From UHGV virus genome UHGV-0063792: 23,367 nt of DNA; one strand, written 5' to 3'. The notes below the pieces were generated by a model. The model made no database searches. It was not told the DNA's origin and saw nothing but the letters and a program-made list of their open reading frames with translations. Made by a program: the position numbers and the translations under genes. Source of the DNA: a virus. This document shows positions 2,874-21,850 of this stretch, one piece after another (within the stretch, counting starts at the first letter, position 1; each line of letters starts with the position of its first letter).

Positions 2874-2898
2874 GATTGTCTCCTCTGAATTATATATC

Positions 2899-3539: not shown

Positions 3540-3579
3540 ATTGTTCTCTATTCAATTGTTATTGGATGGACTTAGATTC

Positions 3580-3606: not shown

Positions 3607-4004
3607 TATACTCTATTACTGGAAGCCAGTTGTAGTTTTATCTGCTCAATATCATCAGGGTTATCGATGACTGAAAAGCGTATTTCTACTATCAAAGTAT
3701 AATCATCATAAACCGGTATTACATTAACTGCTAATTTATCAATACGTGGCTCATAGTTTCTTACTGCGCTTTCGATATTACGCTCAACCGTGTCAGCAGT
3801 AAGAGGAGTCATATTCTCAAAAAGTTGGTCAGATAAATCGCATCCAAATTCAGGGTCAAACGGTCTTGAACCTTTTCTTGTTGTAATAATTCCTAAAAGA
3901 CTATTTTTAATTGACCTTAATCCAAGTGATCTTGAAACGTCTTTGTTCCAATCCATTTTCATCTCTGGGTCAATATCAGAATAAAGCTTATTAATATTTG
4001 CCAT
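3606..4004 (-). CDS. 25: gp25 baseplate wedge subunit (lysozyme-fold), 132 aa
   Basis: 132-aa [31 protein letters not shown], matching T4 gp25; TAATG overlap with gene 26. Confidence 0.9.
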   Translation of the reverse strand: MANINKLYSDIDPEMKMDWNKDVSRSLGLRSIKNSLLGIITTRKGSRPFDPEFGCDLSDQLFENMTPLTADTVERNIESAVRNYEPRIDKLAVNVIPVYDDYTLIVEIRFSVIDNPDDIEQIKLQLASSNRV

Positions 4005-4630
4005 TACAATAGCTCAAAGAATTCTTTGAGTCCTCTTATTACATGAGCGTGAGTTTTTCCACACTCTGGACATTTAATTGGAACAGCCAAATAAACAGTA
4101 GGCTTTAAAAGCATATCTTTTATAGCTACAATATCTGACTCTGTGATGATAGAATATAAATCTTCTAGTTCCTTTTCATTTAAGTCTTCAACTGGAATGC
4201 TTTCCCCGTTAGCATGAATCGTTTCTATACATGATACTATCATGTGGGCTATATTTTTATCATCAAAAATTTTAGGGTATCGGAATTTAATTTTAATGTC
4301 ACCCAGTGTATACCAAAGGTCTTCTGGTGCATCTATTTGTGTATGTAATAGATTTATATGGGTTGGTATTTCAGTTCCGCAGGTGCACTTCCAGGAGTTT
4401 TCGTGATTAACTTCTCCAAGAGAATGCGCCCATAAATGAATCAACAATAGTTCTGATTCTTGGCGATTTAAATCTTTTGCATTTGTGCAGTCTTTGATTA
4501 GCTTTTTAACAATTACTTCTACAGAACCATTATTTTTGGCAGTAATAAGTTCTAGATATTCTTTAAGAGTAAATGCGCGACAGTTGATTATTTTAGAACC
4601 AACTCTCACATCAAATTTGTATTCATACAT
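4004..4630 (-). CDS. 26: gp26 baseplate hub subunit, 208 aa
   Basis: 208-aa ORF, AAAGGAG SD; size and position as T4 gene 26. Confidence 0.85.
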
Positions 4631-4651
4631 ATTTAGCTCCTTTATTTATCA

Positions 4652-4659
4652 TATTTATA
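4652..4659 (-). promoter_or_regulatory. Late promoter TATAAATA for genes 26-25
   Basis: Exact TATAAATA on the minus strand, about 20 nt upstream of the gene 26 ATG. Confidence 0.5.
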
Positions 4660-4663
4660 AATA
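4656..4663 (+). promoter_or_regulatory. Late promoter TATAAATA for gene 51 and the downstream hub operon
   Basis: Exact TATAAATA on the plus strand; GGAG at 4672-4675; ATG at 4681. Confidence 0.5.
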
Positions 4664-4680
4664 GAATAAAAGGAGCATCT

Positions 4681-5430
4681 ATGGCAAACATTATTCGTTG
4701 TAAATTACCAGATGGTGTTCATCGTTTTAAACCATTTACGGTAGAAGATTATCGAGATTTTTTGTTAGTTCGAAACGATATAGAGCATCGGTCACCACAA
4801 GAACAAAAAGAAATAATTACTGATTTAATTGATGATTATTTTGGAGACTATCCGAAGACTTGGCAACCATTTATATTTTTGCAGGTATTTGTAGGTTCAA
4901 TAGGTAAAACTAAAGTACCAGTCACATTTGTATGTCCAAAATGTAAAAAAGAAAAGACAGTTCCATTTGAAATATATCAAAAAGAATTAAAGGAACCTAT
5001 TTTTGATGTAGCTAATGTTAAAATTAAATTAAATTTTCCTTCTGAGTTTTATGAAAATAAAGCAAAGATGATTACTGAAAATATTCATTCTGTTCAAGTA
5101 GATGAAATGTGGTATGATTGGAAGGAAATTAGTGAATCGAGTCAAATAGAACTTGTTGACGCCATCGAGATAGAAACATTAGAAAAAATTCTCGATGCAA
5201 TGAATCCTATTAATTTAACATTGCACATGTCGTGTTGTGATAAGTACATTAAAAAATACACTGATATAGTAGATGTGTTTAAGCTATTAGTTAATCCAGA
5301 TGAGATATTTACTTTTTATCAAATTAATCACACGCTTGTAAAAAGTAATTATAGCTTAAATTCAATAATGAAAATGATTCCTGCCGAGCGCGGATTCGTA
5401 TTAAAACTGATTGAGAAGGATAAACAATAA
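4681..5430 (+). CDS. 51: gp51 baseplate hub assembly catalyst, 249 aa
   Basis: 249-aa ORF with strong SD; size and position as T4 gene 51. Confidence 0.85.
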
Positions 5431-6602
5431 TGAGTATGTTGCAACGCCCCGGATATCCAAATCTCAGCGTTAAATTATTTGAGAGTTATGACGCTTGGAG
5501 TAATAATAGATTTGTTGAATTAGCTGCTACTATTACCACATTAACTATGCGGGATTCTCTTTATGGTCGAAATGAAGGAATGCTACAATTTTATGATTCT
5601 AAAAATATCCATACAAAAATGGATGGAAATGAAATAATTCAGATTTCTGTAGCTAATGCAAACGATATTAATAATGTTAAAACAAGAATTTATGGATGTA
5701 AGCATTTTTCTGTATCTGTAGATTCAAAAGGTGATAACATCATTGCTATTGAATTGGGAACTATTCATTCTATAGAAAATCTTAAATTTGGTAGACCATT
5801 TTTCCCTGATGCAGGTGAATCTATAAAAGAAATGCTTGGTGTCATTTATCAAGACCGCACATTATTAACTCCAGCAATAAATGCTATAAATGCTTATGTT
5901 CCTGATATTCCATGGACTAGCACATTTGAAAACTATTTGTCATATGTAAGAGAAGTTGCTCTAGCGGTAGGAAGCGATAAGTTCGTATTTGTATGGCAAG
6001 ACATCATGGGAGTTAACATGATGGACTATGATATGATGATAAATCAAGAACCATATCCAATGATTGTAGGTGAGCCAACTTTAATAGGTCAATTCGTCCA
6101 AGAATTGAAATATCCATTAGCATATGATTTTGTTTGGTTGACTAAATCAAACCCGCATAAACGTGATCCAATGAAAAATGCTACTATCTATGCTCATTCA
6201 TTTTTAGATTCTTCATTACCAATGATTACTACAGGAAAGGGTGAAAACTCTATTGTAGTGTCAAGGTCAGGTGCTTATTCTGAAATGACTTATAGAAATG
6301 GATATGAAGAAGCTATTCGTCTTCAGACTATGGCGCAATATGACGGCTATGCTAAATGTTCTACTGTCGGTAATTTTAACTTGACTCCTGGCGTTAAAAT
6401 TATTTTTAATGATAGTAAAAACCAATTTAAAACAGAATTTTACGTTGATGAAGTTATTCACGAATTATCAAATAATAATTCCGTAACTCATCTATATATG
6501 TTCACTAATGCAACGAAACTGGAAACAATCGACCCAGTTAAGGTTAAAAATGAATTTAAAACTGATACTACCACTGAAGAAAGTAGTTCTTCCGATAAGT
6601 AA
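5430..6602 (+). CDS. 27: gp27 baseplate hub subunit, 390 aa
   Basis: 390-aa ORF starting in a TAATG overlap with gene 51; matches T4 gp27. Confidence 0.9.
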
Positions 6603-7083
6603 TAAAGAAGTTTCTATTCCTAAGATGGGTCTTAAACATTATAACATTTTAAAAGATGTTAAAGGTCCTGATGAAAATTTAAAGCTTCTTATTGATTCTA
6701 TTTGTCCAAATTTATCACCGGCAGAAGTTGATTTCGTTTCTATTCATTTATTGGAATTTAATGGAAAGATTAAATCTCGTAAAGAAATAGATGGCTATAC
6801 TTATGACATTAATGATGTTTATGTATGCCAAAGATTAGAATTTCAATACCAAGGAAATACATTTTATTTTAGACCTCCTGGAAAATTTGAACAATTTTTA
6901 ACGGTGAGCGATATGTTATCTAAATGCTTGCTTAAGGTCAACGATGAAGTTAAAGAAATTAATTTTCTTGAGATGCCAGCATTCGTTTTAAAATGGGCAA
7001 ATGATATTTTTACAACTTTAGCAATTCCTGGCCCTAATGGTCCAATAACTGGAATTGGCAATATTATTGGATTATTTGAATGA
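6550..7083 (+). CDS. 28: gp28 baseplate hub distal subunit, 177 aa
   Basis: Start chosen at ATG 6550 (AAGG SD 7 nt upstream), giving the T4 gp28 length of 177 aa; the track ORF 6508 start is a TTG; overlaps the gene 27 3' end by 53 nt in another frame. Confidence 0.7.
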
Positions 7084-8852
7084 AAAAGCCACAAGAAATG
7101 CAAACGATGCGTAGAAAAGTTATTTCAGATAATAAACCAACACAGGAAGCGGCTAAATCCGCTTCCAATACTTTATCTGGACTTAATGACATTTCTACAA
7201 AATTGGATGATGCTCAAGCTGCTTCTGAATTAATAGCTCAAACCGTTGAAGAAAAATCGAATGAAATAATTGGAGCAATTGACAATGTAGAAAGCGCAGT
7301 GAGTGATACTACTGCTGGTTCTGAGTTAATTGCTGAAACTGTCGAAATTGGCAATAATATTAATAAAGAAATCGGTGAATCGCTCGGAAGTAAATTAGAT
7401 AAATTAACGAGTTTACTCGAGCAAAAAATCCAGACAGCCGGAATTCAACAAACAGGAACTAGTTTAGCTACGGTTGAAAGCGCTATTCCTGTTAAAGTTG
7501 TTGAGGACGATACAGCTGAATCCGTGGGTCCTTTATTACCAGCTCCTGAAGCAGTTAATAATGATCCTGACGCTGATTTTTTCCCTGCCCCTCAACCAGT
7601 TGAACCTAAGCGAGAGTCACCGGAAGAAAAACAGAAAAAAGAAGCATTTAATTTAAAATTATCTCAAGCTTTAGATAAATTAACAAAGACTGTTGATTTT
7701 GGATTTAAAAAATCCATTTCAATTACTGATAAAATATCAAGCATGCTATTTAAGTATACTGTCAGTGCTGCTATTGAAGCTGCTAAAATGGTTGCATTAA
7801 TAATGGCTGTTGTTATTGGAATAGACCTACTGATGGTTCATTTTAAATATTGGTCAGATAAATTTTCAAAAGCCTGGGATTTGTTTAGCACTGATTTTAA
7901 AACTTTTTCAAGCGAAACCGGAACTTGGGGTCCTTTATTACAGAGCATCTTTGAATCTATTGATGAAATTAAAAAGTTCTGGGAAGCGGGAGATTGGGGC
8001 GGTTTGACGGTAGCTATTGTAGAAGGGCTTGGAAAGGTTCTTTATAATTTAGGAGAACTTATTCAGCTTGGAATGGCTAAATTATCAGCAGCAATTCTTC
8101 GAGTTATTCCTGGTATGAAAGATACTGCTGACGAAGTAGAAGGAAGAGCACTGGAAAATTTCCAAAATTCTACTGGAGCATCTCTCAATAAAGAAGACCA
8201 GGAAAAAGTTGCGAATTATCAAGATAAACGAATGAATGGAGACCTTGGTCCGATAGCAGAAGGACTAGACAAAATTGCGAACTGGAAAACTCGTGCATCT
8301 AACTGGATTCGTGGTGTTGATAATAAAGAAGCATTGACAACTGATGAAGAACGCGCAGCAGAAGAAGAAAAATTAAAGCAGCTTTCACCAGAAGAAAGAA
8401 AAAATGCTTTAATGAAGGCTAATGAAGCCCGTGCCGCGATGATTCGTTTTGAAAAATATGCTGATTCAGCTGATATGAGTAAAGACTCAACGGTTAAATC
8501 AGTTGAAGCTGCCTATGAAGACCTTAAAAAACGAATGGATGACCCGGATTTAAATAATTCACCGGCAGTTAAAAAAGAACTTGCTGCTAGATTTTCTAAA
8601 ATTGATGCTACTTATCAAGAGCTCAAGAAAAATCAGCCTAATGCCAAACCTCAAACTTCTGCTAAATCGCCAGAAGCAAAACAAGTCCAGGTAATAGAAA
8701 AGAACAAAGCACAGCAAGCTCCTATTCAACAAGCATCTCCTTCAATCAATAATACTAATAATGTTATTAAGAAAAATACTGTCGTTCATAATATGACACC
8801 CGTAACGAGCACGACTGCTCCTGGTGTATTTGATGCGACTGGAGTTAATTAA
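7080..8852 (+). CDS. 29: gp29 baseplate hub subunit / tail length determinator, 590 aa
   Basis: 590-aa ORF, ATGA overlap with gene 28; Ala/Glu/Lys-rich extended protein as T4 gp29. Confidence 0.9.
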   Translation: MKKPQEMQTMRRKVISDNKPTQEAAKSASNTLSGLNDISTKLDDAQAASELIAQTVEEKSNEIIGAIDNVESAVSDTTAGSELIAETVEIGNNINKEIGESLGSKLDKLTSLLEQKIQTAGIQQTGTSLATVESAIPVKVVEDDTAESVGPLLPAPEAVNNDPDADFFPAPQPVEPKRESPEEKQKKEAFNLKLSQALDKLTKTVDFGFKKSISITDKISSMLFKYTVSAAIEAAKMVALIMAVVIGIDLLMVHFKYWSDKFSKAWDLFSTDFKTFSSETGTWGPLLQSIFESIDEIKKFWEAGDWGGLTVAIVEGLGKVLYNLGELIQLGMAKLSAAILRVIPGMKDTADEVEGRALENFQNSTGASLNKEDQEKVANYQDKRMNGDLGPIAEGLDKIANWKTRASNWIRGVDNKEALTTDEERAAEEEKLKQLSPEERKNALMKANEARAAMIRFEKYADSADMSKDSTVKSVEAAYEDLKKRMDDPDLNNSPAVKKELAARFSKIDATYQELKKNQPNAKPQTSAKSPEAKQVQVIEKNKAQQAPIQQASPSINNTNNVIKKNTVVHNMTPVTSTTAPGVFDATGVN

Positions 8853-8860
8853 GGAATAAT

Positions 8861-9955
8861 ATGGCAATTGTTAAAGAAATAACTGCTGATTTAATTAAAA
8901 AGTCCGGTGAGAAAATTTCAGCCGGACAGAGTACTAAATCAGAAGTAGCAACTAAAACATACACTGCCCAGTTTCCAACTGGGCGTGCTAGTGGTAATGA
9001 CACTACAGGGGACTTCCAGGTAACAGATCTATATAAGAATGGATTATTATTTACTGCATACAATATGTCATCTAGGGATTCTGGAAGTCTTAGAACGATG
9101 AGATCTAACTACTCTTCTTCATCTTCGAGTATTTTACGTACAGCCAGAAACACTATCAGTAATACAGTATCAAAACTATCAAATGGACTAATATCAGATA
9201 ATAATTCAGGAACAATAAGTAAAGTTCCTGTTGCAAATATTCTTTTACCTAGATCTAAATCTGACGTCGATACGTCATCACATAGATTTAATGATGTTCA
9301 AGATAGTCTTATTACAAAAGGTGGAGGTACTGCTACTGGTGTGCTAAGCAATATGGCTTCAACCGCAGTATTTGGAGCGCTGGAAAGTATAACACAAGGT
9401 ATAATGGCTGATAATAATGAACAGATTTATACGACAGCCAGAAGCATGTACGGCGGTGCTGAAAATAGAACTAAAGTGTTCACTTGGGATTTGACTCCGC
9501 GCTCAACAGAAGATTTAATGGCTATTATTAATATCTATCAGTATTTTAACTATTTTTCTTACGGTGAAACTGGTAAATCTCAATATGCTGCTGAAATAAA
9601 AAGATATCTAGATGAGTGGTACCGTTCTACTTTTATTGAGCCGTTAACTCCAGAAGATGCAGTTAAAAATAAGACGTTATTTGAGAAAATGACATCGAGT
9701 TTAACTAACGTTCTTGTAGTTTCAAACCCGACAATTTGGATGGTGAAAAACTTTGGTGCAACATCTAAGTTTGATGGAAAAACGGAAATATTCGGTCCAT
9801 GTCAAATCCAGAGTATCAGATTTGATAAAACACCTAATGGTAACTTTAACGGATTAGCTATTGCTCCAAATCTCCCTAGTACATTTACTCTCGAGATTAC
9901 TATGAGAGAAATTATCACGTTAAACCGTGCTTCTTTATATGCGGGGACTTTTTAA
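8861..9955 (+). CDS. 48: gp48 baseplate tail-tube junction protein, 364 aa
   Basis: 364-aa ORF with AAGGAA SD; matches T4 gp48. Confidence 0.9.
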   Translation: MAIVKEITADLIKKSGEKISAGQSTKSEVATKTYTAQFPTGRASGNDTTGDFQVTDLYKNGLLFTAYNMSSRDSGSLRTMRSNYSSSSSSILRTARNTISNTVSKLSNGLISDNNSGTISKVPVANILLPRSKSDVDTSSHRFNDVQDSLITKGGGTATGVLSNMASTAVFGALESITQGIMADNNEQIYTTARSMYGGAENRTKVFTWDLTPRSTEDLMAIINIYQYFNYFSYGETGKSQYAAEIKRYLDEWYRSTFIEPLTPEDAVKNKTLFEKMTSSLTNVLVVSNPTIWMVKNFGATSKFDGKTEIFGPCQIQSIRFDKTPNGNFNGLAIAPNLPSTFTLEITMREIITLNRASLYAGTF

Positions 9956-10920
9956 TGTATTCTTTAGAGGAATTTAATAATCAAGCAATAAACGCAGATT
10001 TCCAACGTAATAATATGTTCAGCTGTGTTTTTGCTACAACTCCATCAACTAAAAGCTCTTCGTTGATAAGTTCAATTAGCAACTTTTCTTATAATAACTT
10101 AGGCCTAAATTCAGATTGGTTAGGATTAACTCAAGGCGATATTAATCAGGGAATTACTACGCTAATTACAGCTGGCACACAAAAACTGATAAGAAAATCA
10201 GGGGTTAGTAAATATCTTATTGGTGCCATGAGTCAACGTACAGTTCAAAGTTTATTAGGCTCATTTACAGTTGGTACATATTTAATTGACTTCTTTAACA
10301 TGGCATATAACTCATCTGGATTGATGATATACTCTGTAAAAATGCCAGAGAATAGATTATCCTATGAAACTGACTGGAACTATAATTCTCCTAATATTCG
10401 TATAACTGGGAGAGAATTAGACCCTTTGGTTATTTCATTCAGAATGGATTCAGAAGCTTGTAACTATCGTGCAATGCAAGACTGGGTTAACGCTGTTCAA
10501 GACCCAGTAACTGGATTGCGTGCTTTGCCGCAAGATGTCGAGGCTGATATTCAGGTTAATCTTCATTCTCGCAATGGATTACCACATACTGCGGTGATGT
10601 TCACTGGATGCATTCCAGTGTCCGTAAGCGCTCCTGAGTTATCATATGATGGAGATAACCAAATAACTACATTTGATGTTACTTTTGCGTATAGAGTCAT
10701 GCAGGCTGGAGCAGTTGATAGACAAGCTGCGCTTGAATGGCTTGAATCTGCTGCTATAAATGGTATTCAAAGCGTTCTCGGAAATAGTGGAGGTGTCACT
10801 GGACTATCTAATTCGCTTTCACGACTTAGTAGATTAGGGGGAACTGCAGGAAGCATTTCAAATATTAACACTATGACAGGAATTGTCAATTCGCAAAGTA
10901 AAATATTAGGAGCAATATAA
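9955..10920 (+). CDS. 54: gp54 baseplate tail tube initiator, 321 aa
   Basis: 321-aa ORF, TAATG overlap with gene 48; matches T4 gp54. Confidence 0.9.
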   Translation: MYSLEEFNNQAINADFQRNNMFSCVFATTPSTKSSSLISSISNFSYNNLGLNSDWLGLTQGDINQGITTLITAGTQKLIRKSGVSKYLIGAMSQRTVQSLLGSFTVGTYLIDFFNMAYNSSGLMIYSVKMPENRLSYETDWNYNSPNIRITGRELDPLVISFRMDSEACNYRAMQDWVNAVQDPVTGLRALPQDVEADIQVNLHSRNGLPHTAVMFTGCIPVSVSAPELSYDGDNQITTFDVTFAYRVMQAGAVDRQAALEWLESAAINGIQSVLGNSGGVTGLSNSLSRLSRLGGTAGSISNINTMTGIVNSQSKILGAI

Positions 10921-10922
10921 CA

Positions 10923-10954
10923 ATGGGGACCTTTCGGTCCCCATATTTTTATTT
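10923..10954 (+). terminator. Rho-independent terminator after gene 54, probably bidirectional
   Basis: AUGGGGACC-UUUC-GGUCCCCAU 9-bp GC-rich stem followed by AUUUUUAUUU; also sits at the 3' end of the convergent alt.-3-like gene. Confidence 0.6.
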
Positions 10955-11239
10955 ACGGAATGAAATGAAAGCAGCAACTGAAGCAACTAAACTGTCTTCA
11001 ATATAAACTTCAATTTTTACCGGAGCTTCTGACTCAAATTTACCTGTTACTACACCCTGAAAAATACTTTCAGTCTGTTCTGGCTTTGAAAAATTTTCAG
11101 AAGGAAAAATTCCGAACTTTTTATCTGTTCCAAAAATTTTGATAAATTCATCGTAAACTGCTTCATTAAAAGCATTATCAGCAGGAATAACGCCTTCAAC
11201 TACAAGTTCTTGACCTAAAAAGCGCAAAGAAGATTTCAT
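10949..11239 (-). CDS. alt.-3: Hypothetical protein, 96 aa (position of T4 alt.-3)
   Basis: 96-aa ORF with GAGGAAC SD; convergent with gene 54. Confidence 0.55.
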   Translation of the reverse strand: MKSSLRFLGQELVVEGVIPADNAFNEAVYDEFIKIFGTDKKFGIFPSENFSKPEQTESIFQGVVTGKFESEAPVKIEVYIEDSLVASVAAFISFRK

Positions 11240-11270
11240 TTTGTGTTCCTCATGTTATGTCAGTAAGACT

Positions 11271-11300
11271 ACTATAACACAACACGAGGGACTTGTAAAC
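11271..11300 (-). promoter_or_regulatory. Candidate sigma70-type early promoter for the alt.-3-like gene
   Basis: Minus strand GTTTAC, 18 nt, TATAGT with an upstream TGn; about 30 nt before the ATG at 11239. Confidence 0.35.
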
Positions 11301-11440
11301 TACATCTTGAACTTTTTAGACATTCCGTTGATGTTAACCAAAGAAGCTAAGATTTGAGAAACTTCGTTTTCCTCTTCTTTTGATTCTTCTACAAGGAATT
11401 GATTAAATCCAGCCATTGGACGAACTTCACCAGTTTCCAT
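11300..11440 (-). CDS. 46-aa acidic ORF downstream of alt; may instead be the displaced C-terminus of Alt (see findings)
   Basis: ATG 11440..11438 to TAG 11302..11300 (METGEVRPMAGFNQFLVEESKEEENEVSQ...); the same frame is open upstream to 11518 with no start codon. Confidence 0.3.
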   Translation of the reverse strand: METGEVRPMAGFNQFLVEESKEEENEVSQILASLVNINGMSKKFKM

Positions 11441-11505
11441 TAGATGGTCGCCATCATATACTGATTCTTCTAATTGTTCAGAAGGAGGAACGATTGTACC
11501 TTCGA

Positions 11506-13362
11506 TTAGATATACTTGTTATAAGCAGTTTCTTTCATAAAGTAAGTACTTACTTTATTAATCTTCAGTAAAATTCCACGTGGTAGAATAACTTCAGCTT
11601 CTGACGGAAATCCTGATAAATGACCCGGAACGATAACTTTGATTCGCTCAGCTCCTTTAATTACCATACCCACGCTAGTTTCAGCATCTTCATTAGCATA
11701 TGTAGAATGACTACCCATATGCATCAAATCTTCTGCATCAACGGAACCTTCTCCTTCACCAGAAAATACTGCGCCGGAATCATCTAGAGCCATATAGTTT
11801 TTACCATGCTCACCGAAGATATTTGGTTTAAGCGATGTGGATACGAAGTTCTTGAAATAGAACATTTTATTTTCAATGTTATGACGCAAAGTTTTAAAGG
11901 TAACTTCTTGTCCACGGTAAAGTGTAGTTCCTGGAGGAAGAACTGAACCTTTAGCGAATGCAGAATCAAGCGTCTCAATATGTTTAATAGCTCGTTCCAT
12001 ATATTCTTCACGGGTAGAATCTGGTTTACCCAAAAGGAACGAGTTCATTTCAACATATGAATCTGCACAATAATCTTCAATTACATCAGATTCAGCTTGA
12101 GTTAATCCTTTTGGAGTTACTTCAGTGCTTGCGTATTCATATGCCTGAGCAGCAGATTCATTAATCAATTTATAAATGCCATTCATGACAAATTGAATAA
12201 TAGCTGTCTTTTCATCTGGCGTAGCTTTAGAACCTTTAACCAAATCATTGATAATTTTCTTAATAACATCAAAGCTATTAGAAATATTAATATCAGCAAG
12301 ATCGCTTAAAATTTTATCAGTCTTATAATCAAAGAATTCTTTATTCTTTAAATATTCTTGAGAACCTTGATATGTTATATCGCTCTGTAACTTGATAGAT
12401 GGATCACGTAAACGTGCATGGGCTAATGCAATATGATTTCGGAAGCTTTCGAGTTCATAATCACTAGATTTAAAACGAGAAGCGCTTCTCATACCGCCTA
12501 TAGCTCCTTTGCTGAAGTTTGAACCAATTTGAATAACGCCAGAGTTCATTGGTCCTTCTGCTTTATACACCGGAACTTTAGATTCAAACTCTTGATATTT
12601 CTTAGCAGCGAAGCTATCACCCTGAAGTGAAGCATCAACAGTAGAATATTGAGCTTGTGCTGCTAATCGACGACTAATTTTAGTTTTCTGAATAACAGCT
12701 TGGTCCGTGCGCTTATCATTTTCTAAAGCAATAGAAGCAGCAACAGCAACAGCTTTAGGAACAGCATTACCTGTTTTAACATCTACATAAACATCACCAA
12801 CCTTTGATTCAACTTTTGTGAATAACTCAGTTGAAATAGGAGGTACACCTGGAATGTCTTCTAAATTGGCATTTTTACGATAAACCATAATATATGCGTA
12901 CTTTTTATCATAATCCCAGATTTCCTTTAAAAGAACATATCGACCTGCTCCTTTAGTACGTACTAAACGGTCAGCAATAACTTGCATTTGACGAGCAGCG
13001 CCATTTGTTTTACTCTTTAGTACGCGGAATAAGCATGCATCAATTTTATACTGTTTCATTGTTTGAAGAGCAGTATCAAAAACAGCGTTAATGACGCCAA
13101 TTGGATTTCCACCCAAGTTTCTAAGTTTAACCAGTGATAATTTCTCGTTGACACCTATCATTACGATATGCATCATTTTATCGCCCGGCTTAACGTTTTT
13201 ATTTGTATCACCTCCAGAGGTGTATGTACAAAATCTAAATCCAGGAAGCACGCTTTCTTCGCCGGCTTGAATAGCAAAAATTTGAGGTATTTTATGCTTA
13301 GGATTTAAGTTAACAACCGGCGCCGAAGCGCCGTCAAATAATTCTGTAATAAGTTCCATCAT
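11506..13362 (-). CDS. alt: Alt, head-packaged mono-ADP-ribosyltransferase, 618 aa as read here
   Basis: R-S-E ART motifs near the C-terminus (TLYRGQ, FVSTSL, SEAEVILPRG); N-terminus MMELITELFD; position between gene 30 and gene 54 as in T4. Confidence 0.85.
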   Translation of the reverse strand: MMELITELFDGASAPVVNLNPKHKIPQIFAIQAGEESVLPGFRFCTYTSGGDTNKNVKPGDKMMHIVMIGVNEKLSLVKLRNLGGNPIGVINAVFDTALQTMKQYKIDACLFRVLKSKTNGAARQMQVIADRLVRTKGAGRYVLLKEIWDYDKKYAYIMVYRKNANLEDIPGVPPISTELFTKVESKVGDVYVDVKTGNAVPKAVAVAASIALENDKRTDQAVIQKTKISRRLAAQAQYSTVDASLQGDSFAAKKYQEFESKVPVYKAEGPMNSGVIQIGSNFSKGAIGGMRSASRFKSSDYELESFRNHIALAHARLRDPSIKLQSDITYQGSQEYLKNKEFFDYKTDKILSDLADINISNSFDVIKKIINDLVKGSKATPDEKTAIIQFVMNGIYKLINESAAQAYEYASTEVTPKGLTQAESDVIEDYCADSYVEMNSFLLGKPDSTREEYMERAIKHIETLDSAFAKGSVLPPGTTLYRGQEVTFKTLRHNIENKMFYFKNFVSTSLKPNIFGEHGKNYMALDDSGAVFSGEGEGSVDAEDLMHMGSHSTYANEDAETSVGMVIKGAERIKVIVPGHLSGFPSEAEVILPRGILLKINKVSTYFMKETAYNKYI

Positions 13363-13382
13363 AGCCTCTCTAGTGTTTATTC

Positions 13383-13390
13383 TATTTATA
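13383..13390 (-). promoter_or_regulatory. Late promoter TATAAATA for alt
   Basis: Exact TATAAATA on the minus strand, about 20 nt upstream of the alt ATG, followed by GAGAGG SD. Confidence 0.5.
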
Positions 13391-13395
13391 AAATT

Positions 13396-13413
13396 AAAGG
13401 CCCGAAGGCCTTT
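13396..13413 (-). terminator. Rho-independent terminator (UUCG tetraloop) after the 62-aa ORF
   Basis: Minus strand AAAGGCC-UUCG-GGCCUUU, perfect 7-bp stem, followed by AAUUUUAU. Confidence 0.5.
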
Positions 13414-13600
13414 AGTAATCTAGTGGTAAGAGAGTACGATATATTTCAAACTTTGGTCCTTTTTCATAGGCATCAAATGTTTCTGTAAATTTATTATAAG
13501 CGTATGCATCTACAAATTCGAGAATGACTTGTGATACAGAAGTAGAAACATCTCCACCTTCTTTTTGAGCAATGACAATTGTTTCTAAGTAAGCTTTCAT
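13412..13600 (-). CDS. Hypothetical small protein, 62 aa, between ligase and alt
   Basis: ORF with ATGA overlap onto the ligase stop; translationally coupled. Confidence 0.55.
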   Translation of the reverse strand: MKAYLETIVIAQKEGGDVSTSVSQVILEFVDAYAYNKFTETFDAYEKGPKFEIYRTLLPLDY

Positions 13601-15060
13601 AAACCAGTTACCTCATGAAAATCACCAAATACATCCTCGAATGTATTAGCTTTAGTTTTATCTTCACGTAAACGAATCGCAATCGGAAGAAATAATTTAA
13701 CGTAATCAGTGCGGCCATCAGATTTTAACCAACCGTTGCATTCGCACTCTAGAATTTTTCCAATATAATAATTTTGGTTTTCCATAATGCGAGTACGGTC
13801 AAGTTCATGCGATTTTACACCGGCTTTATCTTTTAAGCCTGAACCAGCATTTACCTTAATTTTTCCACACTCTGATTCAAGAATAAATCCACCCGCTTTA
13901 GTAGGGTCTTTACGGTGAGGATAAATTCCTACAATTTTTAAATCAACATCAATTACTTCTTTAAATTTATAGAGATTTTTTGAACGAGCATTTTCCCACA
14001 ATCCATCGGTATTTTTGAGAATAATACCTTCAAGACCTTGGTCAATATACTTTTTATAAATTACCTTAGCTTCATCTAGGTTATTTACTACCTGGTTTTC
14101 AATTAAAATTACTTTATCATAACCTGATGTCATTTGTTCTAGTTTAGAAAAACGTACATCATATTTCAAACGAAATGCAGGAAGACCGTATATTTCTACC
14201 AACGGGACATAATCCCAGACCTGAAACTTCATGCATTGAGCTTCTTTTTCAGAAATGGTTCCCTTTAAAGATTTATTGGCGATGCCATTAGATGCAGTAC
14301 GTGATTCAGCTACTTCGGCGAATTCTTTAGCTTTACTAATTTCAGGATAAGCATCAAAAAGAAAATCTAGGCCTTCTGGCTCCTTTTCAACTTGCTCATG
14401 GTATACCAATTCGCCATCAATTAACACACCTTCTGGATGAATCTGGCGAGCTTCTGCAGTCATTTTGATTAACTCTTCCTTAAGAAGATCTAATCCTAGA
14501 TATTCATTACCAGCTCGTGATAAAAGACGAACATCATCTAATTCATCACCTCTGACTTCAGCAAAACACCGAGCTCCATCAGCTTTTAACTGGGCAAAGG
14601 CTGGAAATTTGATATTCTTATTAATGCCTTTTTCATCATAAGAACTTGCAAGCATTTGAGGTTGTTCAGGAATTAAACCTGGCCAAACTTTGTTTGCAAT
14701 AGATACTGAAGCACCGCATTCAAGGTCTCGCATCATCACCCGACGCAAAACTTCAACATCATCTTTTTTACCGTCAGTAATATATCCAGTTAATTCCTCA
14801 ATTGCCGCATTTCCAGTCAATTTCCGAGTAGCTAACGTGAATTCAATGAAGTCAAGCATATCGGTAAGAGTCAACATTCCAAAACTCTGGGTAGCAATAC
14901 CCGGTTTAGGCCATTTCTTGATATAATACTGTAACCCACGAGAATAAGTCAGACGATATACTCGTTTAAGCAATTCATTATCTTTATTCTTTTCAAGAAT
15001 TGCTTGCTTCTGCTTAGTTGAACCAATAGATGCTATTTCGTTCAGAATTTTAAGAATCAT
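13597..15060 (-). CDS. 30: ATP-dependent DNA ligase (gp30), 487 aa
   Basis: 487-aa ORF with adenylation motif KxDG (AQLKADGARC) and N-terminus MILKILNEIASIGSTKQKQAILEKN, as T4 DNA ligase. Confidence 0.92.
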   Translation of the reverse strand: MILKILNEIASIGSTKQKQAILEKNKDNELLKRVYRLTYSRGLQYYIKKWPKPGIATQSFGMLTLTDMLDFIEFTLATRKLTGNAAIEELTGYITDGKKDDVEVLRRVMMRDLECGASVSIANKVWPGLIPEQPQMLASSYDEKGINKNIKFPAFAQLKADGARCFAEVRGDELDDVRLLSRAGNEYLGLDLLKEELIKMTAEARQIHPEGVLIDGELVYHEQVEKEPEGLDFLFDAYPEISKAKEFAEVAESRTASNGIANKSLKGTISEKEAQCMKFQVWDYVPLVEIYGLPAFRLKYDVRFSKLEQMTSGYDKVILIENQVVNNLDEAKVIYKKYIDQGLEGIILKNTDGLWENARSKNLYKFKEVIDVDLKIVGIYPHRKDPTKAGGFILESECGKIKVNAGSGLKDKAGVKSHELDRTRIMENQNYYIGKILECECNGWLKSDGRTDYVKLFLPIAIRLREDKTKANTFEDVFGDFHEVTGL

Positions 15061-15326
15061 TGTTCATCCTTTAGAGTTTGGTTTACAGCTCTATTATAAA
15101 TCAATTCATCATTAAGCTCAGTCAAAGACCTGTGGTACGTGGTTCTAACTTTATTTCCTTGCATCCAGTGCTTGACGTAAATGAAACCTTGCTCTACGCA
15201 TTTTTTAAAAATTCGTTCGTCTTTTTGAGCTCGGAATTCTGGATTGCATCTAAAAAATTGATTTACGTGACCATAATCACGTGTAGTATTACCTTCATTT
15301 TCATAAATAGTGTGAACAACAAACAT
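15057..15326 (-). CDS. Hypothetical protein, 89 aa (30.1-like position)
   Basis: ORF with ATGA overlap onto the ligase start and TAATG overlap with the upstream gene. Confidence 0.6.
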   Translation of the reverse strand: MFVVHTIYENEGNTTRDYGHVNQFFRCNPEFRAQKDERIFKKCVEQGFIYVKHWMQGNKVRTTYHRSLTELNDELIYNRAVNQTLKDEQ

Positions 15327-16162
15327 TAGAATGCTCCTTGGAAAATATTATCACCACAAGTAGGTCTATTATACAAATACTCTATACCACCGGGTTTAAT
15401 ATAGTTCCATGTCTGAAACGGATGCGTCTGATATGGATGATATGGATTATAAGGATTAAATCCAGGAGTTCTCCAGGTAGTGTTCCAACGAAAAGAATCA
15501 TTTTTAATCATCTTTTCAATTACATCTTTTATAGCTTTTTCACTATCAAAACTTTCTTTATTTTCCTTTGGTGAAAAAAGCTTATTCTCTACATCGTTCC
15601 ATGTATAAACTCGCTGTGCAGTTTTTGGAATACTGTCACGCTCTCCTCGAGCCATCCAATACACAGGAACACGTAATATTTCACTCGCATGATCGCAGTG
15701 GTGAGCGAGATCGTCAATATAACAAATTACATTATATTTCTCTTTTGCCTTTTTGAACAACTCTTCTTTTGAAGAATCATGACCACACATCATTACTTCT
15801 GAGAAGGCACCAGGAAAAAGAGCATTCAAATTAAATTGACGATTCAGCAAAGCGTCAATAGAATCACCCAATGCTGTAACAGCTACAAAATTATAATCTT
15901 CTTTTAATTTGTTAATTACACACAGAGCATCTTTATATGGAGACAAATAACGAATAAAATCTGATCGATTGTATTTTTCAATTAGCTTAACGCCAAGTTC
16001 TTCATCACAGTTAAAGAGTTTACCAGGAGAAATAAATTTCTCATCTTGGATCATTTTTAAAATATGTTCTAACGGAAGATTATATTTCTGAGCAAAATAA
16101 GGAAGGCCTGATTGCCAGCTTAAACATACTCCATCAATATCAGTTAAAATAGTAGGCTTCAT
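15326..16162 (-). CDS. HAD-superfamily hydrolase-like protein, 278 aa (30.2-like position)
   Basis: N-terminal ILTDIDGV (HAD motif I, DxDGx[TV]) and later YIDD acidic motif; Pro/Tyr-rich tail NPYNPYHPYQTHPFQTWNY. Confidence 0.6.
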   Translation of the reverse strand: MKPTILTDIDGVCLSWQSGLPYFAQKYNLPLEHILKMIQDEKFISPGKLFNCDEELGVKLIEKYNRSDFIRYLSPYKDALCVINKLKEDYNFVAVTALGDSIDALLNRQFNLNALFPGAFSEVMMCGHDSSKEELFKKAKEKYNVICYIDDLAHHCDHASEILRVPVYWMARGERDSIPKTAQRVYTWNDVENKLFSPKENKESFDSEKAIKDVIEKMIKNDSFRWNTTWRTPGFNPYNPYHPYQTHPFQTWNYIKPGGIEYLYNRPTCGDNIFQGAF

Positions 16163-16617
16163 AGAGAGTCTCTTAATAGGTTTAACACATCAATAAATTC
16201 AGCTTCGGTTAGTATTGTATCATCTTTTGTTAGACCACTAGCCATGCTGTGCTTCAAAACTTTTCCTTTCGAGGCTTGTAATGCATCACGAAAGCCCTTG
16301 TTTTGGATCGCTGCTTCAAAATATGCATTTGTGTATAATTCTTTCCACGCCGGGGAGTATCTTGAAAATGGAACTCCAAGCCAGAAGAGGGTCCCATGGT
16401 CCTGAGCTCTAGCATAAGACCTTCCAGCTTGTTGGGCGGCAAGCCCGGATAATCCAAATATACGACGTTGTTGTTCAACGTTTTTCACCTTACATCCTTG
16501 GAGGAATCCTTCGAGACCTCCGAATTGAATACCATCCATGACGAAAGGCCATTGGGCAAAATTACTTAATGCGCATGATGGCCATCTAAAATTACTTCTA
16601 ATCTCTAACTCAGACAT
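16159..16617 (-). CDS. NADAR / YbiA-like (DUF1768) domain protein, 152 aa (30.3-like position)
   Basis: Motif LSNFAQWPFVMDGIQFGGLEGFLQGCK resembles the NADAR core (SNF..P...DG......E.[FY]Q..K); start set at ATG 16617 because the track ORF 16623 start is a TTG. Confidence 0.6.
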   Translation of the reverse strand: MSELEIRSNFRWPSCALSNFAQWPFVMDGIQFGGLEGFLQGCKVKNVEQQRRIFGLSGLAAQQAGRSYARAQDHGTLFWLGVPFSRYSPAWKELYTNAYFEAAIQNKGFRDALQASKGKVLKHSMASGLTKDDTILTEAEFIDVLNLLRDSL

Positions 16618-16673
16618 TTTCAATGCTTATAATTTCAACATCAGCCCAATGACCATAGCAAGGAAGACGAAAT

Positions 16674-16805
16674 TCAACTGGCCAGTTCTAATATAATAGA
16701 CTTAACTTGTGGTTCTTCATGTTCATCAGTATATGGATTTTTATCTGTTACTTTATATGTGACCTTAATGTACTGAATTCCAAAAATCTTATTAATTATA
16801 TTCAT
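16674..16805 (-). CDS. Hypothetical micro-protein, 43 aa; below the ORF-track cutoff
   Basis: ATG 16805..16803 in ATGA overlap with the upstream gene stop; translation MNIINKIFGIQYIKVTYKVTDKNPYTDEHEEPQVKSIILELAS. Confidence 0.3.
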   Translation of the reverse strand: MNIINKIFGIQYIKVTYKVTDKNPYTDEHEEPQVKSIILELAS

Positions 16806-16999
16806 ACTAATTCCTTTAATCCGTAGATAGGAGATAATTCATCGCCCATACGAAGGTCTTCATTTCCATCTACCCAAGAAACAATATAAGCCTCTTTTAT
16901 TTGAATACCACTCCATTTAAACGGAGGTAGAACCTTAGAAATTAATCCAGGTATACCAACTCCCTTTAATTCAACAGTTTGACCTAAAAAGAATTTCAT
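16802..16999 (-). CDS. Hypothetical protein, 65 aa
   Basis: ORF with TAATG overlap to the upstream gene. Confidence 0.5.
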   Translation of the reverse strand: MKFFLGQTVELKGVGIPGLISKVLPPFKWSGIQIKEAYIVSWVDGNEDLRMGDELSPIYGLKELV

Positions 17000-17286
17000 T
17001 AAAACCTCATCTGAAAACCGTGCGATTTAACATTACCGCCATTAATATCAGAACTATTAATTTCACGTGCAATTGAGGGATCAATGTCAATTTCGCGATT
17101 GAGTTTAGTGATAGCTAAAGTATCGCGCCCATTTACAGTACGGAACTCTAAAGGGCAGACTACATTAACGTAGTTTTTAATCGATTCACTGGTAGGTTGC
17201 AAATGTGCAGGAAGGTCTTTAGGCGCCTTTGAGAAAACTACTTCGCAGAAGTTTTTACGGGTATCAAAATAAGTAGTCATAAACAT
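16999..17286 (-). CDS. Hypothetical protein, 95 aa
   Basis: Start set at ATG 17286, 8 nt after GAGG; the track ORF 17337 start is a TTG. Confidence 0.5.
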   Translation of the reverse strand: MFMTTYFDTRKNFCEVVFSKAPKDLPAHLQPTSESIKNYVNVVCPLEFRTVNGRDTLAITKLNREIDIDPSIAREINSSDINGGNVKSHGFQMRF

Positions 17287-17303
17287 AACATTTTCCTCAG
17301 TAA

Positions 17304-17317
17304 GGGGCCAAAGCCCC
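17304..17317 (+). other. GC hairpin in the short intergenic space
   Basis: GGGGC-CAAA-GCCCC; on the plus strand it is followed by UCAUUUAUUUU, so it could terminate antisense plus-strand transcription, or act as an mRNA processing/stability element on the minus strand. Confidence 0.3.
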
Positions 17318-17326
17318 TCATTTATT

Positions 17327-17692
17327 TTAAATATCAAATTCGTTAAGAACTACATCAAAGATTGCTTCAAGATGCTCAGGTTTAGCTCTGTTACTCAGAA
17401 TATGACGAATCCAAGTTTTAACCAAAAGCTTGCGATTAACGCCATTCCAGCAAGGATGAGTCCCTAAATCGCGTTCACGGAAATCATCATCCAGAGCGAT
17501 TTTAAAGTTGGAACCTTCCATCGTGATTGAAACCGTGATACCGTTTTCAAATCGCATATAAATGTAATTAGGAGTCATATACTGCTCAATTTCGCATACT
17601 GATCCATTTTGATGTTTCCAAAGGCAAATAGTATCAATAGAACCTGCAATACCATTAGAAACATATTTACGTTCAAAGTTGATGTAGTTCAT
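17327..17692 (-). CDS. Hypothetical protein, 121 aa
   Basis: Start set at ATG 17692 with GGAGAATAAA immediately upstream; the track ORF 17704 start is a TTG. Confidence 0.6.
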   Translation of the reverse strand: MNYINFERKYVSNGIAGSIDTICLWKHQNGSVCEIEQYMTPNYIYMRFENGITVSITMEGSNFKIALDDDFRERDLGTHPCWNGVNRKLLVKTWIRHILSNRAKPEHLEAIFDVVLNEFDI

Positions 17693-17728
17693 TTTATTCT
17701 CCAAGATGTTTAATTGCGGTACAGGTAT

Positions 17729-17757
17729 ATAATATCATATCCTGTACCAAAGTAAAC
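17729..17757 (-). promoter_or_regulatory. Candidate early promoter
   Basis: Minus strand GTTTAC, 17 nt, TATTAT; the -10 lies in the loop of the inverted repeat GGTACAGG/CCTGTACC; followed by GGAGAATAAAATG. Confidence 0.4.
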
Positions 17758-17759
17758 AA

Positions 17760-18092
17760 TTATTTTACTACTTTCCAATGCTGCATGTCAAGTTTACCAA
17801 CTTTTTTCATCTTCTCAATTAAGCGTTCGGCACGTTGGCGAGCTGTAACATAATACCATTCACCTAATTCATTTTGTTCAATTTTTCCAACGATTACTGT
17901 ATTCAATTCATAAATCCAACCAGTAAAGAAATTATGAACTTGAATTGTAAAGGTGAAATCTGTTCCCATACCTTCTGTTGTTTCTACTTCAATAATATCA
18001 CCTTCAACTGCCATTAAGAACCACATAGTTTCATCATATTTACCATTGAAGCATTTAGTTTTAACTGCAGCGTTCAGATTAATCGTTTTCAT
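17760..18092 (-). CDS. Hypothetical protein, 110 aa
   Basis: ORF with ATG start preceded by AAAGGAGAATAAA. Confidence 0.6.
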   Translation of the reverse strand: MKTINLNAAVKTKCFNGKYDETMWFLMAVEGDIIEVETTEGMGTDFTFTIQVHNFFTGWIYELNTVIVGKIEQNELGEWYYVTARQRAERLIEKMKKVGKLDMQHWKVVK

Positions 18093-18124
18093 TTTATTCT
18101 CCTTTGTTTGTGTAAGATAATACT

Positions 18125-18154
18125 ATCATATCACAAAGGAACCATACTGTAAAC
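18125..18154 (-). promoter_or_regulatory. Candidate early promoter
   Basis: Minus strand GTTTAC, 18 nt, TATGAT; shares the GATATGATA motif and the GGAGAATAAAATG RBS with the promoter at 17729-17757. Confidence 0.3.
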
Positions 18155-18170
18155 AACTTTATGCAATCTT

Positions 18171-18202
18171 TGGAAAATAAAAAAGGACTCCCGAAGGAGT
18201 CC
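18171..18202 (-). terminator. Strong rho-independent terminator (UUCG tetraloop)
   Basis: Minus strand GGACUCC-UUCG-GGAGUCC, perfect 7-bp stem, followed by UUUUUUAUUUUCC; 5 nt after the stop of the small basic protein gene. Confidence 0.65.
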
Positions 18203-18207
18203 TCAAC

Positions 18208-18384
18208 TTATGCTTTCTGCTTACCAAAACGAGAAGCATCATCTCGAAGAACCGCACGTGCTCGGCGCATGATCTTCTCAACAGTTTGATTGATACGAGA
18301 GTTCGACCCACGCTTGTAGCCAGCGCGTTTAGAATCACCAACTTTCTTTTCAACTGCTTTCTTTGCTTTAGCTTGTTTTGCCAT
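18208..18384 (-). CDS. Small Lys/Arg-rich basic protein, 58 aa (possible alternative start at 18426 giving 72 aa)
   Basis: MAKQAKAKKAVEKKVGDSKRAGYKRGSNSRINQTVEKIMRRARAVLRDDASRFGKQKA; weak AAGAG SD; followed by the strong terminator. Confidence 0.5.
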   Translation of the reverse strand: MAKQAKAKKAVEKKVGDSKRAGYKRGSNSRINQTVEKIMRRARAVLRDDASRFGKQKA

Positions 18385-18426
18385 TATAAATTCTCTTTTA
18401 AATGAAAATGCAGGACTTATTGGCAT

Positions 18427-18782
18427 TGCCTGCGCAAGCCCTCAAGGGGAACATAGGTTTTTTGATATTTAACGACCAGGATAACCATAAACCCGTCATC
18501 ATACCTTATAGCTCTTATCTGTTGCACACCGTTAGCTTAAAGGTTCCGGGTTCGATTTCTCGAGGATAAGATATATACTGATGGATATATAGGCCTTGAG
18601 GCGTACTCCCGATTGGCCATCACCTCGGGGTAGCATGCACTTGCCGCTATAAGAATAACATTCAAGAGGTACACCGTAAAACTGCCGGGGTCTTAAAACT
18701 ATAATGATTCGCAAATCATTAATCAGACAGTTCGACGGCTCCTCGTTTTAACTTCACACTAAGGCAGTGAATCTCCAATAAA
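18427..18782. other. 355-bp non-coding, locally GC-rich region with multiple hairpins between rIII and the small basic protein gene
   Basis: No ORF with an ATG start and RBS on either strand; inverted repeats at 18560-18600, 18608-18629, 18702-18721 and 18752-18770. Confidence 0.4.
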
Positions 18783-19031
18783 TTACTTCAGTGTTACCAC
18801 AAAGTGACGAACTGCTTTTCGTGCAGCAGAAGCCAGAGGCTTAGCATATTTAAGTTCATCTTTTTCCTGAAGCTCAGCAGCTAATGCAGTTTGAGCAGGA
18901 TTCAGATGTTTGAAATAACGCAGGATTTCAAGAGCTTCGGCTTCAACATCAATAGATGCGCCATAGTTTTCGTGACCATTATTCCATGCGTTTCGTTGCA
19001 GTTCAAGAGCGTGTTGTAATTGTTTAATCAT
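18783..19031 (-). CDS. rIII: RIII lysis-inhibition accessory protein, 82 aa
   Basis: 82-aa ORF MIKQLQHALELQRNAWNNGHENYGASIDVEAEALEILRYFKHL, matching T4 RIII in sequence and length. Confidence 0.85.
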   Translation of the reverse strand: MIKQLQHALELQRNAWNNGHENYGASIDVEAEALEILRYFKHLNPAQTALAAELQEKDELKYAKPLASAARKAVRHFVVTLK

Positions 19032-19170
19032 TTAAAAATTCTCGTTAGAGATTAAAACTCGGTAGTCACGTTCTTCTGAATTTCATCTTCTTTCGACAGA
19101 TCTCTCAGTTGTAGACTACCACATAGAATTGTTCGGTTAACTTATTATTCCGACACCAAATTCATATTAT

Positions 19171-19178
19171 TATTTATA
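19171..19178 (-). promoter_or_regulatory. Possible late promoter TATAAATA upstream of rIII
   Basis: Exact TATAAATA on the minus strand just after the gene 31 stop, about 140 nt upstream of the rIII ATG; the long spacing lowers confidence. Confidence 0.25.
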
Positions 19179-19514
19179 TCACTTATAAAGACACGGAATA
19201 GCTTTATAGTGACAGGTAACGAATTTTTGTTTAATTTCTTTTGGCTGCTTAAAACCCAGAGCTACAAAAGGGTGTGGAACGTTTCGAATTTGACCAACTG
19301 GAAGAGAAGTCAAATCACCAACTTCACAGAAACCTTCAGGAACATCAGGACCGACAGAGTGAACTACACACAGTTCAGGAACTTCACCTTGAACACGTTT
19401 ACCGATAATAAGTCCTGATTCTGTAACTTCTTCATCACCGGCTTGTGCAGGTTCAGAAACTAAAATAACATATTCACCGACAGCACGAATTGGTAGCTGT
19501 TGTACTTCAGACAT
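19179..19514 (-). CDS. 31: gp31 co-chaperonin (GroES analogue for capsid protein folding), 111 aa
   Basis: 111-aa [33 protein letters not shown] with AAGGA SD; matches T4 gp31. Confidence 0.9.
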
Positions 19515-19544
19515 CGTTTTTCCTTTTTGTTAACAGATGAATTA

Positions 19545-19569
19545 ATAATAACAAATAATTCTTAAAGCA
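19545..19569 (-). promoter_or_regulatory. Candidate MotA-dependent middle promoter for gene 31
   Basis: Minus strand aaTGCTTTA (MotA box), 12 nt, TATTAT; about 30 nt upstream of the gene 31 ATG. Confidence 0.4.
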
Positions 19570-19570
19570 T

Positions 19571-19879
19571 TTATTTACCAATAAATTGGAGCAAATGCTC
19601 AACTTTCATACCATTAACGGAAATCAATTTGTCAATAGAAAAACCTCGCCATGCACCAAGTTCAACATCAAATACTGGAATCATATCAGTAGATTCTTTC
19701 CGAGTAGATTCAGTCAATTTACCAGTTTGCATGGTTGGCATAAAGTCAGCATCGCGAGTACCTTTCATAACACGAATAGTACCATCAGACTTTTCAAAAA
19801 CTACGTTTGAAACACCCATGGACAATTTAGTTTTCAAAATTTCACGAATTGCTACTTTTTGTTCAGTCGTCAGTTTCAT
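19571..19879 (-). CDS. Hypothetical protein, 102 aa (31.1-like position)
   Basis: ORF whose ATG directly follows the TAA that closes the start-less frame upstream (TAAATG). Confidence 0.6.
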   Translation of the reverse strand: MKLTTEQKVAIREILKTKLSMGVSNVVFEKSDGTIRVMKGTRDADFMPTMQTGKLTESTRKESTDMIPVFDVELGAWRGFSIDKLISVNGMKVEHLLQFIGK

Positions 19880-20118
19880 TTATTTACCTATTACAGTTTT
19901 AATATGAGTTGTTCCACGTTCTTTAAGAGTGGAAAGTAATTTTTGGCATTTTTCTAAATCAGATTTCCAACTATGTGGTCTATCAATACAAACCCAGTTT
20001 GACTTATAATACTGCTTCCATTTAGAGAAAAAATACTTCTTATACTCTACAGCAAATGAAATGTTCTCGTTGGAATAAGAGAACTAATTGCTGTGAGCTG
20101 TACCAAACGAAATTTCAT
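19880..20118 (-). pseudogene. Frame-disrupted small gene between cd and the 102-aa ORF
   Basis: ATG at 20118..20116 (TAATG overlap with the cd stop) opens a 23-codon frame ending in TAG near 20050; the -1 frame is open without any ATG for 62 codons from about 20083 to TAA 19882..19880. Confidence 0.35.
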
Positions 20119-21848: not shown

Positions 21849-21850
21849 TA

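Follow-up and report, generated by a model that had tools for sequence, protein, structure and literature searches.

The stretch analysed here (the window) comprises 23,367 nucleotides (nt) of the virus genome UHGV-0063792. It is a segment of a Tequatrovirus genome, with Escherichia phage vB_EcoM_G4498 (NC_054918) as its closest relative. On its minus strand lies a gene for an ADP-ribosyltransferase (ART) of the Alt family, whose reading frame stops early and is followed by an open frame without a start codon. In this work we examined the break between these two frames. We consider it likely that the gene is an ordinary, recent frameshift allele, caused by the insertion of a TA dinucleotide and probably non-functional or weakened, of the Alt-like paralogue in a metagenome-assembled, G4498-like Tequatrovirus, which has also lost alt.

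Two abutting reading frames

The truncated open reading frame (ORF) extends from 13359 to 11506 on the minus strand and encodes 617 amino acids (aa), i.e. 616 native residues and an isoleucine, before the TAA at 11508..11506 (C-terminus ...FMKETAYNKYI*). An extra in-frame ATG at 13362 adds one methionine in the mechanical ORF list. The neighbouring minus-strand frame is open from 11518 to a TAG at 11302..11300, giving 72 codons without a start. It reads QVYLIEGTIVPPSEQLEESVYDGDHLMETGEV...KFKM, its translation beginning with QVYLIEGTIV and ending with KFKM, and overlaps the first frame by only about 10 nt. Re-reading of the sequence confirmed the coordinates and translations that a first-pass annotation, made from the DNA letters, had given for both frames.

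We estimate that an open stretch of 72 codons would arise by chance with a probability of about 0.005, given the A+T content of the DNA (about 7% stops per random codon). In profile searches the truncated ORF covered positions 2-599 of the 674 positions of PHROG 802 (Alt-like RNA polymerase ADP-ribosyltransferase; E 2.7e-228), and the orphan frame covered positions 600-674 (E 2.9e-22). The downstream frame is therefore fully explained by homology and, since the frames abut at positions 599/600 of this family profile, the two are consecutive pieces of one gene. The orphaned 3' coding region (11300..11509, minus strand) comprises codons L617-M685 of the intact protein and the original TAG at 11302..11300.

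The interrupted gene is the Alt-like paralogue

In related phages two tandem genes for ARTs, presumably packaged in the capsid and injected, are found between alt.1/gene 30 and alt.-3/gene 54. The first is alt (682 aa, the orthologue of T4 Alt), at 1949-3997 of the G4498 locus; the second, at 4001-6058, encodes a paralogue of 685 aa that resembles Alt and is named 'alt.-2' in RB32. The product of the window gene is 46-47% identical to both T4 Alt and G4498 gp221, and 100% identical to G4498 gp222 once the frame is repaired. By sequence comparison it is thus the second tandem paralogue (RB32 alt.-2 type), and orthology to T4 alt is excluded. The name alt given at first has to be corrected accordingly: the gene is an Alt paralogue of the G4498 gp222 type, and the real alt is deleted in this genome. 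When distant DNA matches were sought with a 311-nt query spanning the junction, the match to T4 was confined to the final 70 nt of the query.

Pfam PF03496 matched residues 417-608 of the truncated product (E 1.5e-19), and PF26846 (Tevenvirinae_ADPRT) is among the precomputed matches for the exact 617-aa product. With these family profiles matching across the N-terminal domain and the ART domain, the product belongs to the Tevenvirinae Alt/Alt-like family.

A TA tandem duplication shifts the frame

Alignment with G4498 and AR1 revealed a tandem duplication of TA at 11510-11513 (minus strand), a +2 frameshift lesion. The window reads AAGTATATC where the relatives read AAGTATC, i.e. TATAT versus TAT. 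The codons AAC AAG TAT CTA ATC (N K Y L I) of G4498 and AR1 correspond to AAC AAG TAT ATC TAA in the window. In the G4498 alignment the extra TA is placed at 11510-11511, although which of the two TA units is extra is undecidable. Between positions 1 and 13359 the window differs from G4498 by four substitutions and by this TA, which is the sole indel.

Taking out the TA yields a protein of 685 aa from the ATG at 13359, or 686 aa from that at 13362, in agreement with the length of about 687 aa first calculated for a fusion. The repaired protein is identical over its whole length to G4498 gp222 (685 aa), with ...AYNKYLIEGTIV... as the peptide that spans the junction in the unbroken protein. The proposal that a single-nucleotide indel would join the frames was correct in that one small indel lies at the expected place, but the lesion is an insertion of two nucleotides. 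The orphaned 3' part shows zero nucleotide substitutions relative to G4498, so that the mutation, if real, must be very recent.

The TA allele was present in none of 384 related phage records (best match 89/91), and an exact match to the TA junction was absent from IMG/VR, the GTDB genomes and the JGI metagenomes; the intact junction, without the TA, was found twice in IMG/VR. Homologues with full N-termini measure 682-712 aa among the matches listed. The sequences of three shorter, N-terminally truncated gene calls (P0007, P0009 and P0010) were read and retain the C-terminal tail. The first-pass annotation had held that homologues ending at the equivalent of 11506, together with an independent conserved small protein in the tail, would mean that there is no frame break. 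None of the homologue sequences compared ends at the premature stop of the window, nor is the tail a conserved small protein in its own right. The explanation that it had put first, a frameshift truncating an Alt-family ADP-ribosyltransferase and displacing its C-terminus, is supported by the G4498 alignment, the PHROG 802 matches and the repaired protein.

The TA would have been gained at codon 617 of the Alt-like gene, most simply by replication slippage on TAT. The shifted frame reads Tyr616-Ile-stop, and the 72-codon frame is the displaced 3' end, in which 15 residues of the predicted mature form are followed by the 54-residue propeptide. It is presumably neither translated alone nor reached by recoding.

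A small gene or recoding at the junction

Two explanations would leave the downstream frame with a function of its own. It could be a separate functional small gene for a free propeptide, of 46 aa from the ATG at 11440 or of 38 aa from the ATG at 11416. The 46-codon ORF (METGEV...KFKM; 11303..11440, minus strand), which starts at M640 inside the propeptide, is annotated by gene callers, including on a European Nucleotide Archive (ENA) contig. In addition, a weak GGTGA match precedes the ATG at 11416 by 8 nt, and the propeptide sequence is highly conserved. However, no Shine-Dalgarno match precedes the ATG at 11440, for which the first-pass annotation had already noted no convincing ribosome-binding site, whereas real neighbouring genes have matches of 4-6 nt at a spacing of 3-7 nt. 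Moreover, profile matches of the frame are confined to the C-terminal end of Alt-like families, and the tail-bearing members of the 90% cluster that were compared (78-187 aa) are longer C-terminal fragments of Alt-like proteins, with no conserved independent small-protein family for the tail among them. The split is also confined to one lineage, with zero divergence since. We judge that the 46-codon ORF is not a gene, and consider a functional small gene in this frame very improbable.

This small gene had at first been suggested to resemble alt.-1 or alt.-2. Neither an own start with a ribosome-binding site nor, among the cluster members compared, separate conserved homologues were found for it, and alt.-1/alt.-2 of T4 are remnants of the N-terminal part of the paralogue, not of its tail.

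Alternatively, ribosomes might shift (by -1 or +2) at the junction and produce the full-length protein despite the insertion, as the short overlap of the frames and the intact downstream frame would allow. Yet the junction AAG UAU AUC UAA UCG contains no X XXY YYZ heptamer and, judging from these codons, a P-site tRNA-Ile on AUC would be unable to re-pair after a -1 shift. The predicted folding of the 111 nt that surround the junction is not better than that of shuffled sequences (z = -0.09), and the two-frame arrangement occurs in 0 of the 384 relatives. Recoding at this site is extremely improbable. A programmed -1 frameshift site in particular lacks here the heptamer, the stimulatory structure and the conservation, and its earlier dismissal holds. 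A scan for promoters and terminators gave nothing beyond chance near the junction.

Parts of the protein removed by the truncation

The catalytic E-x-E motif, E587-A-E589 (11593..11601, minus strand), is retained 28 residues before the premature stop. The truncated ORF contains YRG (R482), STS (507-509) and EAE (587-589), and hence the R/S-T-S/E-x-E signature of arginine-specific (C3- and CT-type) ARTs; R482, S507, S509, E587 and E589 are invariant in 27 Alt and Alt-like sequences. A complete ART fold and a C-terminal tail in one frame are restored only by conceptual removal of the TA. The Pfam ART match covers profile positions 13-191 in the intact protein and 13-180 of 196 in the truncated one. 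An AlphaFold model of P0001, an intact homologue (mean predicted local distance difference test score, pLDDT, 75), closes the ART domain with a strand hairpin (596-607 and 612-623). Y616 is the last native residue of the window protein, which ends within the final core strand of the fold (predicted strand 612-623). When the family profile was compared with Protein Data Bank (PDB) sequences, the solved C3-like and binary-toxin ART chains 4xsg, 5h03 and 5gtt ended exactly at the strand aligned to KYLIEGTIV; a PDB search with the single sequence gave no match. Matches by fold were to Vis, Certhrax, C3 and CDTa.

The predicted C-terminal propeptide (S632-M685, 54 aa; 11303..11464, minus strand) is now out of frame, as is the predicted prohead-protease site LEE-631 (codons 11473..11465), located 15 residues past the premature stop. 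In T4 Alt, mass spectrometry has located the cuts of the prohead protease at ITE-6 and LTE-619 (Ali et al. 2017, PMC5694885), and cleavage at LTE-619 takes a 63-residue C-terminal propeptide off the protein (PMC5694885). In our alignment QLEE/SVYDGD of the paralogue stands opposite ELTE/SVIYDGD of T4 Alt, so that LEE-631 faces LTE-619. Of these L/I-x-E gp21 motifs, the window protein thus has the predicted ITE-6 site at its N-terminus, with LEE-631 left in the other frame. Given the alignment of LEE-631 with the T4 cleavage site, the product would therefore be short of the final 15 residues of the mature form as predicted, and would lack the whole 54-residue propeptide. Twelve tail residues are invariant in the 27 sequences (E631, Y634, D635, G636, D637, E641, G643, E644, F651, F654, K682 and F683), and they hold across both paralogues.

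We infer from the predicted fold that the 617-aa product would behave as a null or hypomorphic (inactive or weakened) allele. It would keep ITE-6, in the N-terminal propeptide, and the R/S-T-S/E-x-E residues, and would lose the last half-strand of the ART fold together with the C-terminal propeptide.

Deletion of the neighbouring alt gene

The true alt gene is absent from the window. A three-way alignment (window 13333-13411, compared with the G4498 locus at 1949-4000) showed a deletion of 2052 bp, which lies between the 5' ends of alt and the Alt-like gene, where both share the same 27 nt. The deletion junction is the 27-nt stretch ATGGAACTTATTACAGAATTATTTGAC (13333..13359, minus strand), which encodes MELITELFD including the ITE-6 protease site. 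Loss of alt would have occurred by recombination between these identical ends. As the deletion lies exactly between identical gene starts, the alt promoter and ribosome-binding site should now drive the paralogue. Among 499 phage records, none had a single match extending across this junction, which was also absent from IMG/VR and the GTDB genomes.

With alt deleted and the Alt-like gene frameshifted, the phage probably has no functional Alt-type enzyme to inject. Such a loss should be tolerable, since Alt is listed as non-essential (PMC9026906). T4 Alt is reported to help in the evasion of Mokosh type I (2025 preprint, bioRxiv 10.1101/2025.11.20.689424), and its loss may therefore be costly on some hosts.

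Genuine mutation or artefact

The exact 617-aa product is on record on four contigs, while the 618-aa version that starts at the first ATG had no exact match. Over the 8 kb compared, the window shares 100% identity with the ENA contig LIJU14-1_SAMEA2338790_METAG-scaffold_90 (ERZ28598798; 135,198 nt), and hence stems from this metagenomic phage. NODE_8384 (ERZ1310103; 1,730 nt, a SPAdes-style name) is 100% identical over 1730 nt, TA included. The two ENA assembly records that carry the TA thus differ in their contig-naming styles, which makes a genuine mutation likelier than an assembler artefact. An assembly error, one of the options raised at first, loses weight through the second record, although an error at the level of the reads may still account for the TA.

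Several points weigh against our interpretation. It is based on assembled contigs, so that a read-level or consensus error is possible, and the two ENA assemblies may share a sample or read set. The second contig, NODE_8384, has a k-mer coverage of only about 2.75x. The window also contains unusually many short tandem duplications (TA, AG and TATCA), found in none of the other records searched, which could reflect a technical artefact. Finally, the loss of activity is argued from the fold, and a protein ending 15 residues short might keep some activity.

If the extra TA were a consensus error introduced by sequencing or assembly, the phage would have an intact 685-aa Alt-like gene. The low coverage of the second contig and the two further tandem duplications would suit this explanation, as would the metagenomic source of the assembly and the uniqueness of the allele (0 of 384 isolate genomes). 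In addition, the Alt-like gene is split, whether genuinely or by error, in the isolate record of phage UTI-E4. On the other side, the insertion occurs in two records whose naming styles suggest different assemblers and which are identical over 1730 nt, and the window is nearly error-free relative to G4498 outside one mosaic patch. Insertions of two nucleotides outside homopolymers, as in the present case, are not typical of Illumina or assembler errors. Furthermore, no indel of the window strikes an essential gene, all of its small indels being located in dispensable genes or intergenic DNA. We roughly estimate the probability that all of them would miss essential genes by chance at about 0.09. 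This distribution fits real mutations filtered by selection, although the indels are few in number. Altogether, we regard an artefact as unlikely.

A genuine mutation could also be more than ordinary decay. The allele might have been selected in a wild lineage that has shed both enzymes, the 617-aa product might be a working, 'pre-matured' enzyme, or the phage might replicate in a slippage-prone manner; even taken together, we find these possibilities rather improbable. In the first case, a host defence that senses Alt activity, or a cost exceeding the benefit in the gut host, could provide the selection. In the second, the enzyme would be freed from control by its C-terminal propeptide. The third would explain the cluster of short tandem duplications within 23 kb.

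Other lesions and neighbouring genes

Further differences from G4498 were noted in the window. The gene 31.2 homologue (minus strand, ATG at 20118) carries a tandem duplication of AG at 20078-20079 (CT in the sense of the gene), a lesion of the kind seen in the Alt-like gene with the TA. It truncates the 31.2-like protein to 23 aa, compared with 78 aa in G4498, and was absent from the other 451 matching phage records. An intergenic 5-nt tandem duplication, TATCA, lies at 18124-18128 downstream of gene 30.8; none of the 503 other phage records that matched there contains it. A difference of 1 nt from G4498 in an A-run at 18179 seems to be common to other phages, the best records being 5 nt, not 6, off the window.

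Identity to G4498 amounts to 99.955% for positions 1-13359 and 99.3% for positions 13400-23367. About 58 of the 73 differing positions (substitutions and gap positions) in this right-hand part are found in a mosaic patch at about 15000-17000, for which the best other record (G2540) is just 95.5% identical. Such clustering suggests a recombination patch in the 30.1-30.4 region. Inside the patch, the gene 30.4 homologue (16674-16805) has lost 11 nt compared with G4498, at about 16686, which changes the C-terminus and gives 43 aa versus 68 aa.

Upstream of the ART gene, the alt.1 homologue (13412-13600), an ORF of 62 aa, matched Pfam PF24647 ('Phage blade protein', E 1.9e-29). The ORF shares 4 nt with the end of the DNA ligase gene, and behind it lies a hairpin that resembles a terminator (13414-13395). 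On the other side, alt.-3 (10949-11239, DUF5498) is intact and encodes the wild-type protein of 96 aa, without a C-terminal extension. Mutants of T4 Alt.-3 with a C-terminal extension escape the CmdTAC defence (PMC11618068). A link between this defence and the frame break was considered and discarded as irrelevant, since it concerns alt.-3 and not Alt, and alt.-3 of the window is wild type.

Discussion

In the Alt-like allele described here, a known accessory gene is, in our view, on its way to becoming a pseudogene. For annotation, the 617-aa and 46-aa ORFs represent one frameshifted (pseudo)gene of the Alt-like paralogue rather than 'alt' and a hypothetical protein. The truncation adjoins the boundary of the C-terminal propeptide seen in T4 Alt, for which targeting, tethering and control of activity are candidate roles. 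As a natural mutant without alt and without the C-terminus of the Alt-like protein, the phage would, if isolated, bear on the roles of the propeptide and of the Alt enzymes, for example in the evasion of Mokosh type I, which is reported for T4 Alt.

Its nearest counterparts are RB32 alt.-2, G4498 KMC10_gp222 (YP_010070297) and AR1_201, which share a common position upstream of alt.-3 and gene 54. PHROG 802, PF03496 and PF26846 are common to the window gene and the G4498 gp222 type. Unlike G4498 gp222, however, the window gene is broken at codon 617 of 685 and comes directly after alt.1 and gene 30.

T4 Alt (gp alt, NP_049811, 682 aa), an RNA-polymerase ADP-ribosyltransferase that is packaged in the capsid and injected, belongs to the same family and has the same architecture. 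The two proteins share the N-terminal MELITELFD with the ITE-6 protease site and the R/STS/ExE motifs and, once the window gene is repaired, the conserved C-terminal tail with YDGDxLMETGE. They differ in that the window gene encodes a paralogue, at the 46-47% identity given above, of which T4 has no intact copy.

A frame break in the same paralogue is found in the isolate Escherichia phage UTI-E4 (OL870317), where the gene is annotated as two overlapping coding sequences. This break, whether real or an error, is at another position, about codon 290-297 versus codon 617 in the window. On contigs of 30-168 kb, gene calls of 78, 121, 163 and 187 aa also represent no more than C-terminal pieces of Alt-like proteins. 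With UTI-E4, they hint that the paralogue has been frame-broken repeatedly, in nature or in assemblies, as in T4.

In T4 itself, alt.-1/alt.-2 represent another decayed state of the Alt-like paralogue, annotated as a duplication of the first part of alt that a stop codon interrupts. In the window protein, residues 1-56 and 62-117 match two short PHROG families without an assigned function (23015 and 15247), which we take to be of the alt.-1/alt.-2 type. The T4 remnants thus consist of the N-terminal part of the paralogue after a large deletion, whereas the orphan frame of the window is its C-terminal part, displaced by an insertion of 2 nt and as yet undecayed.

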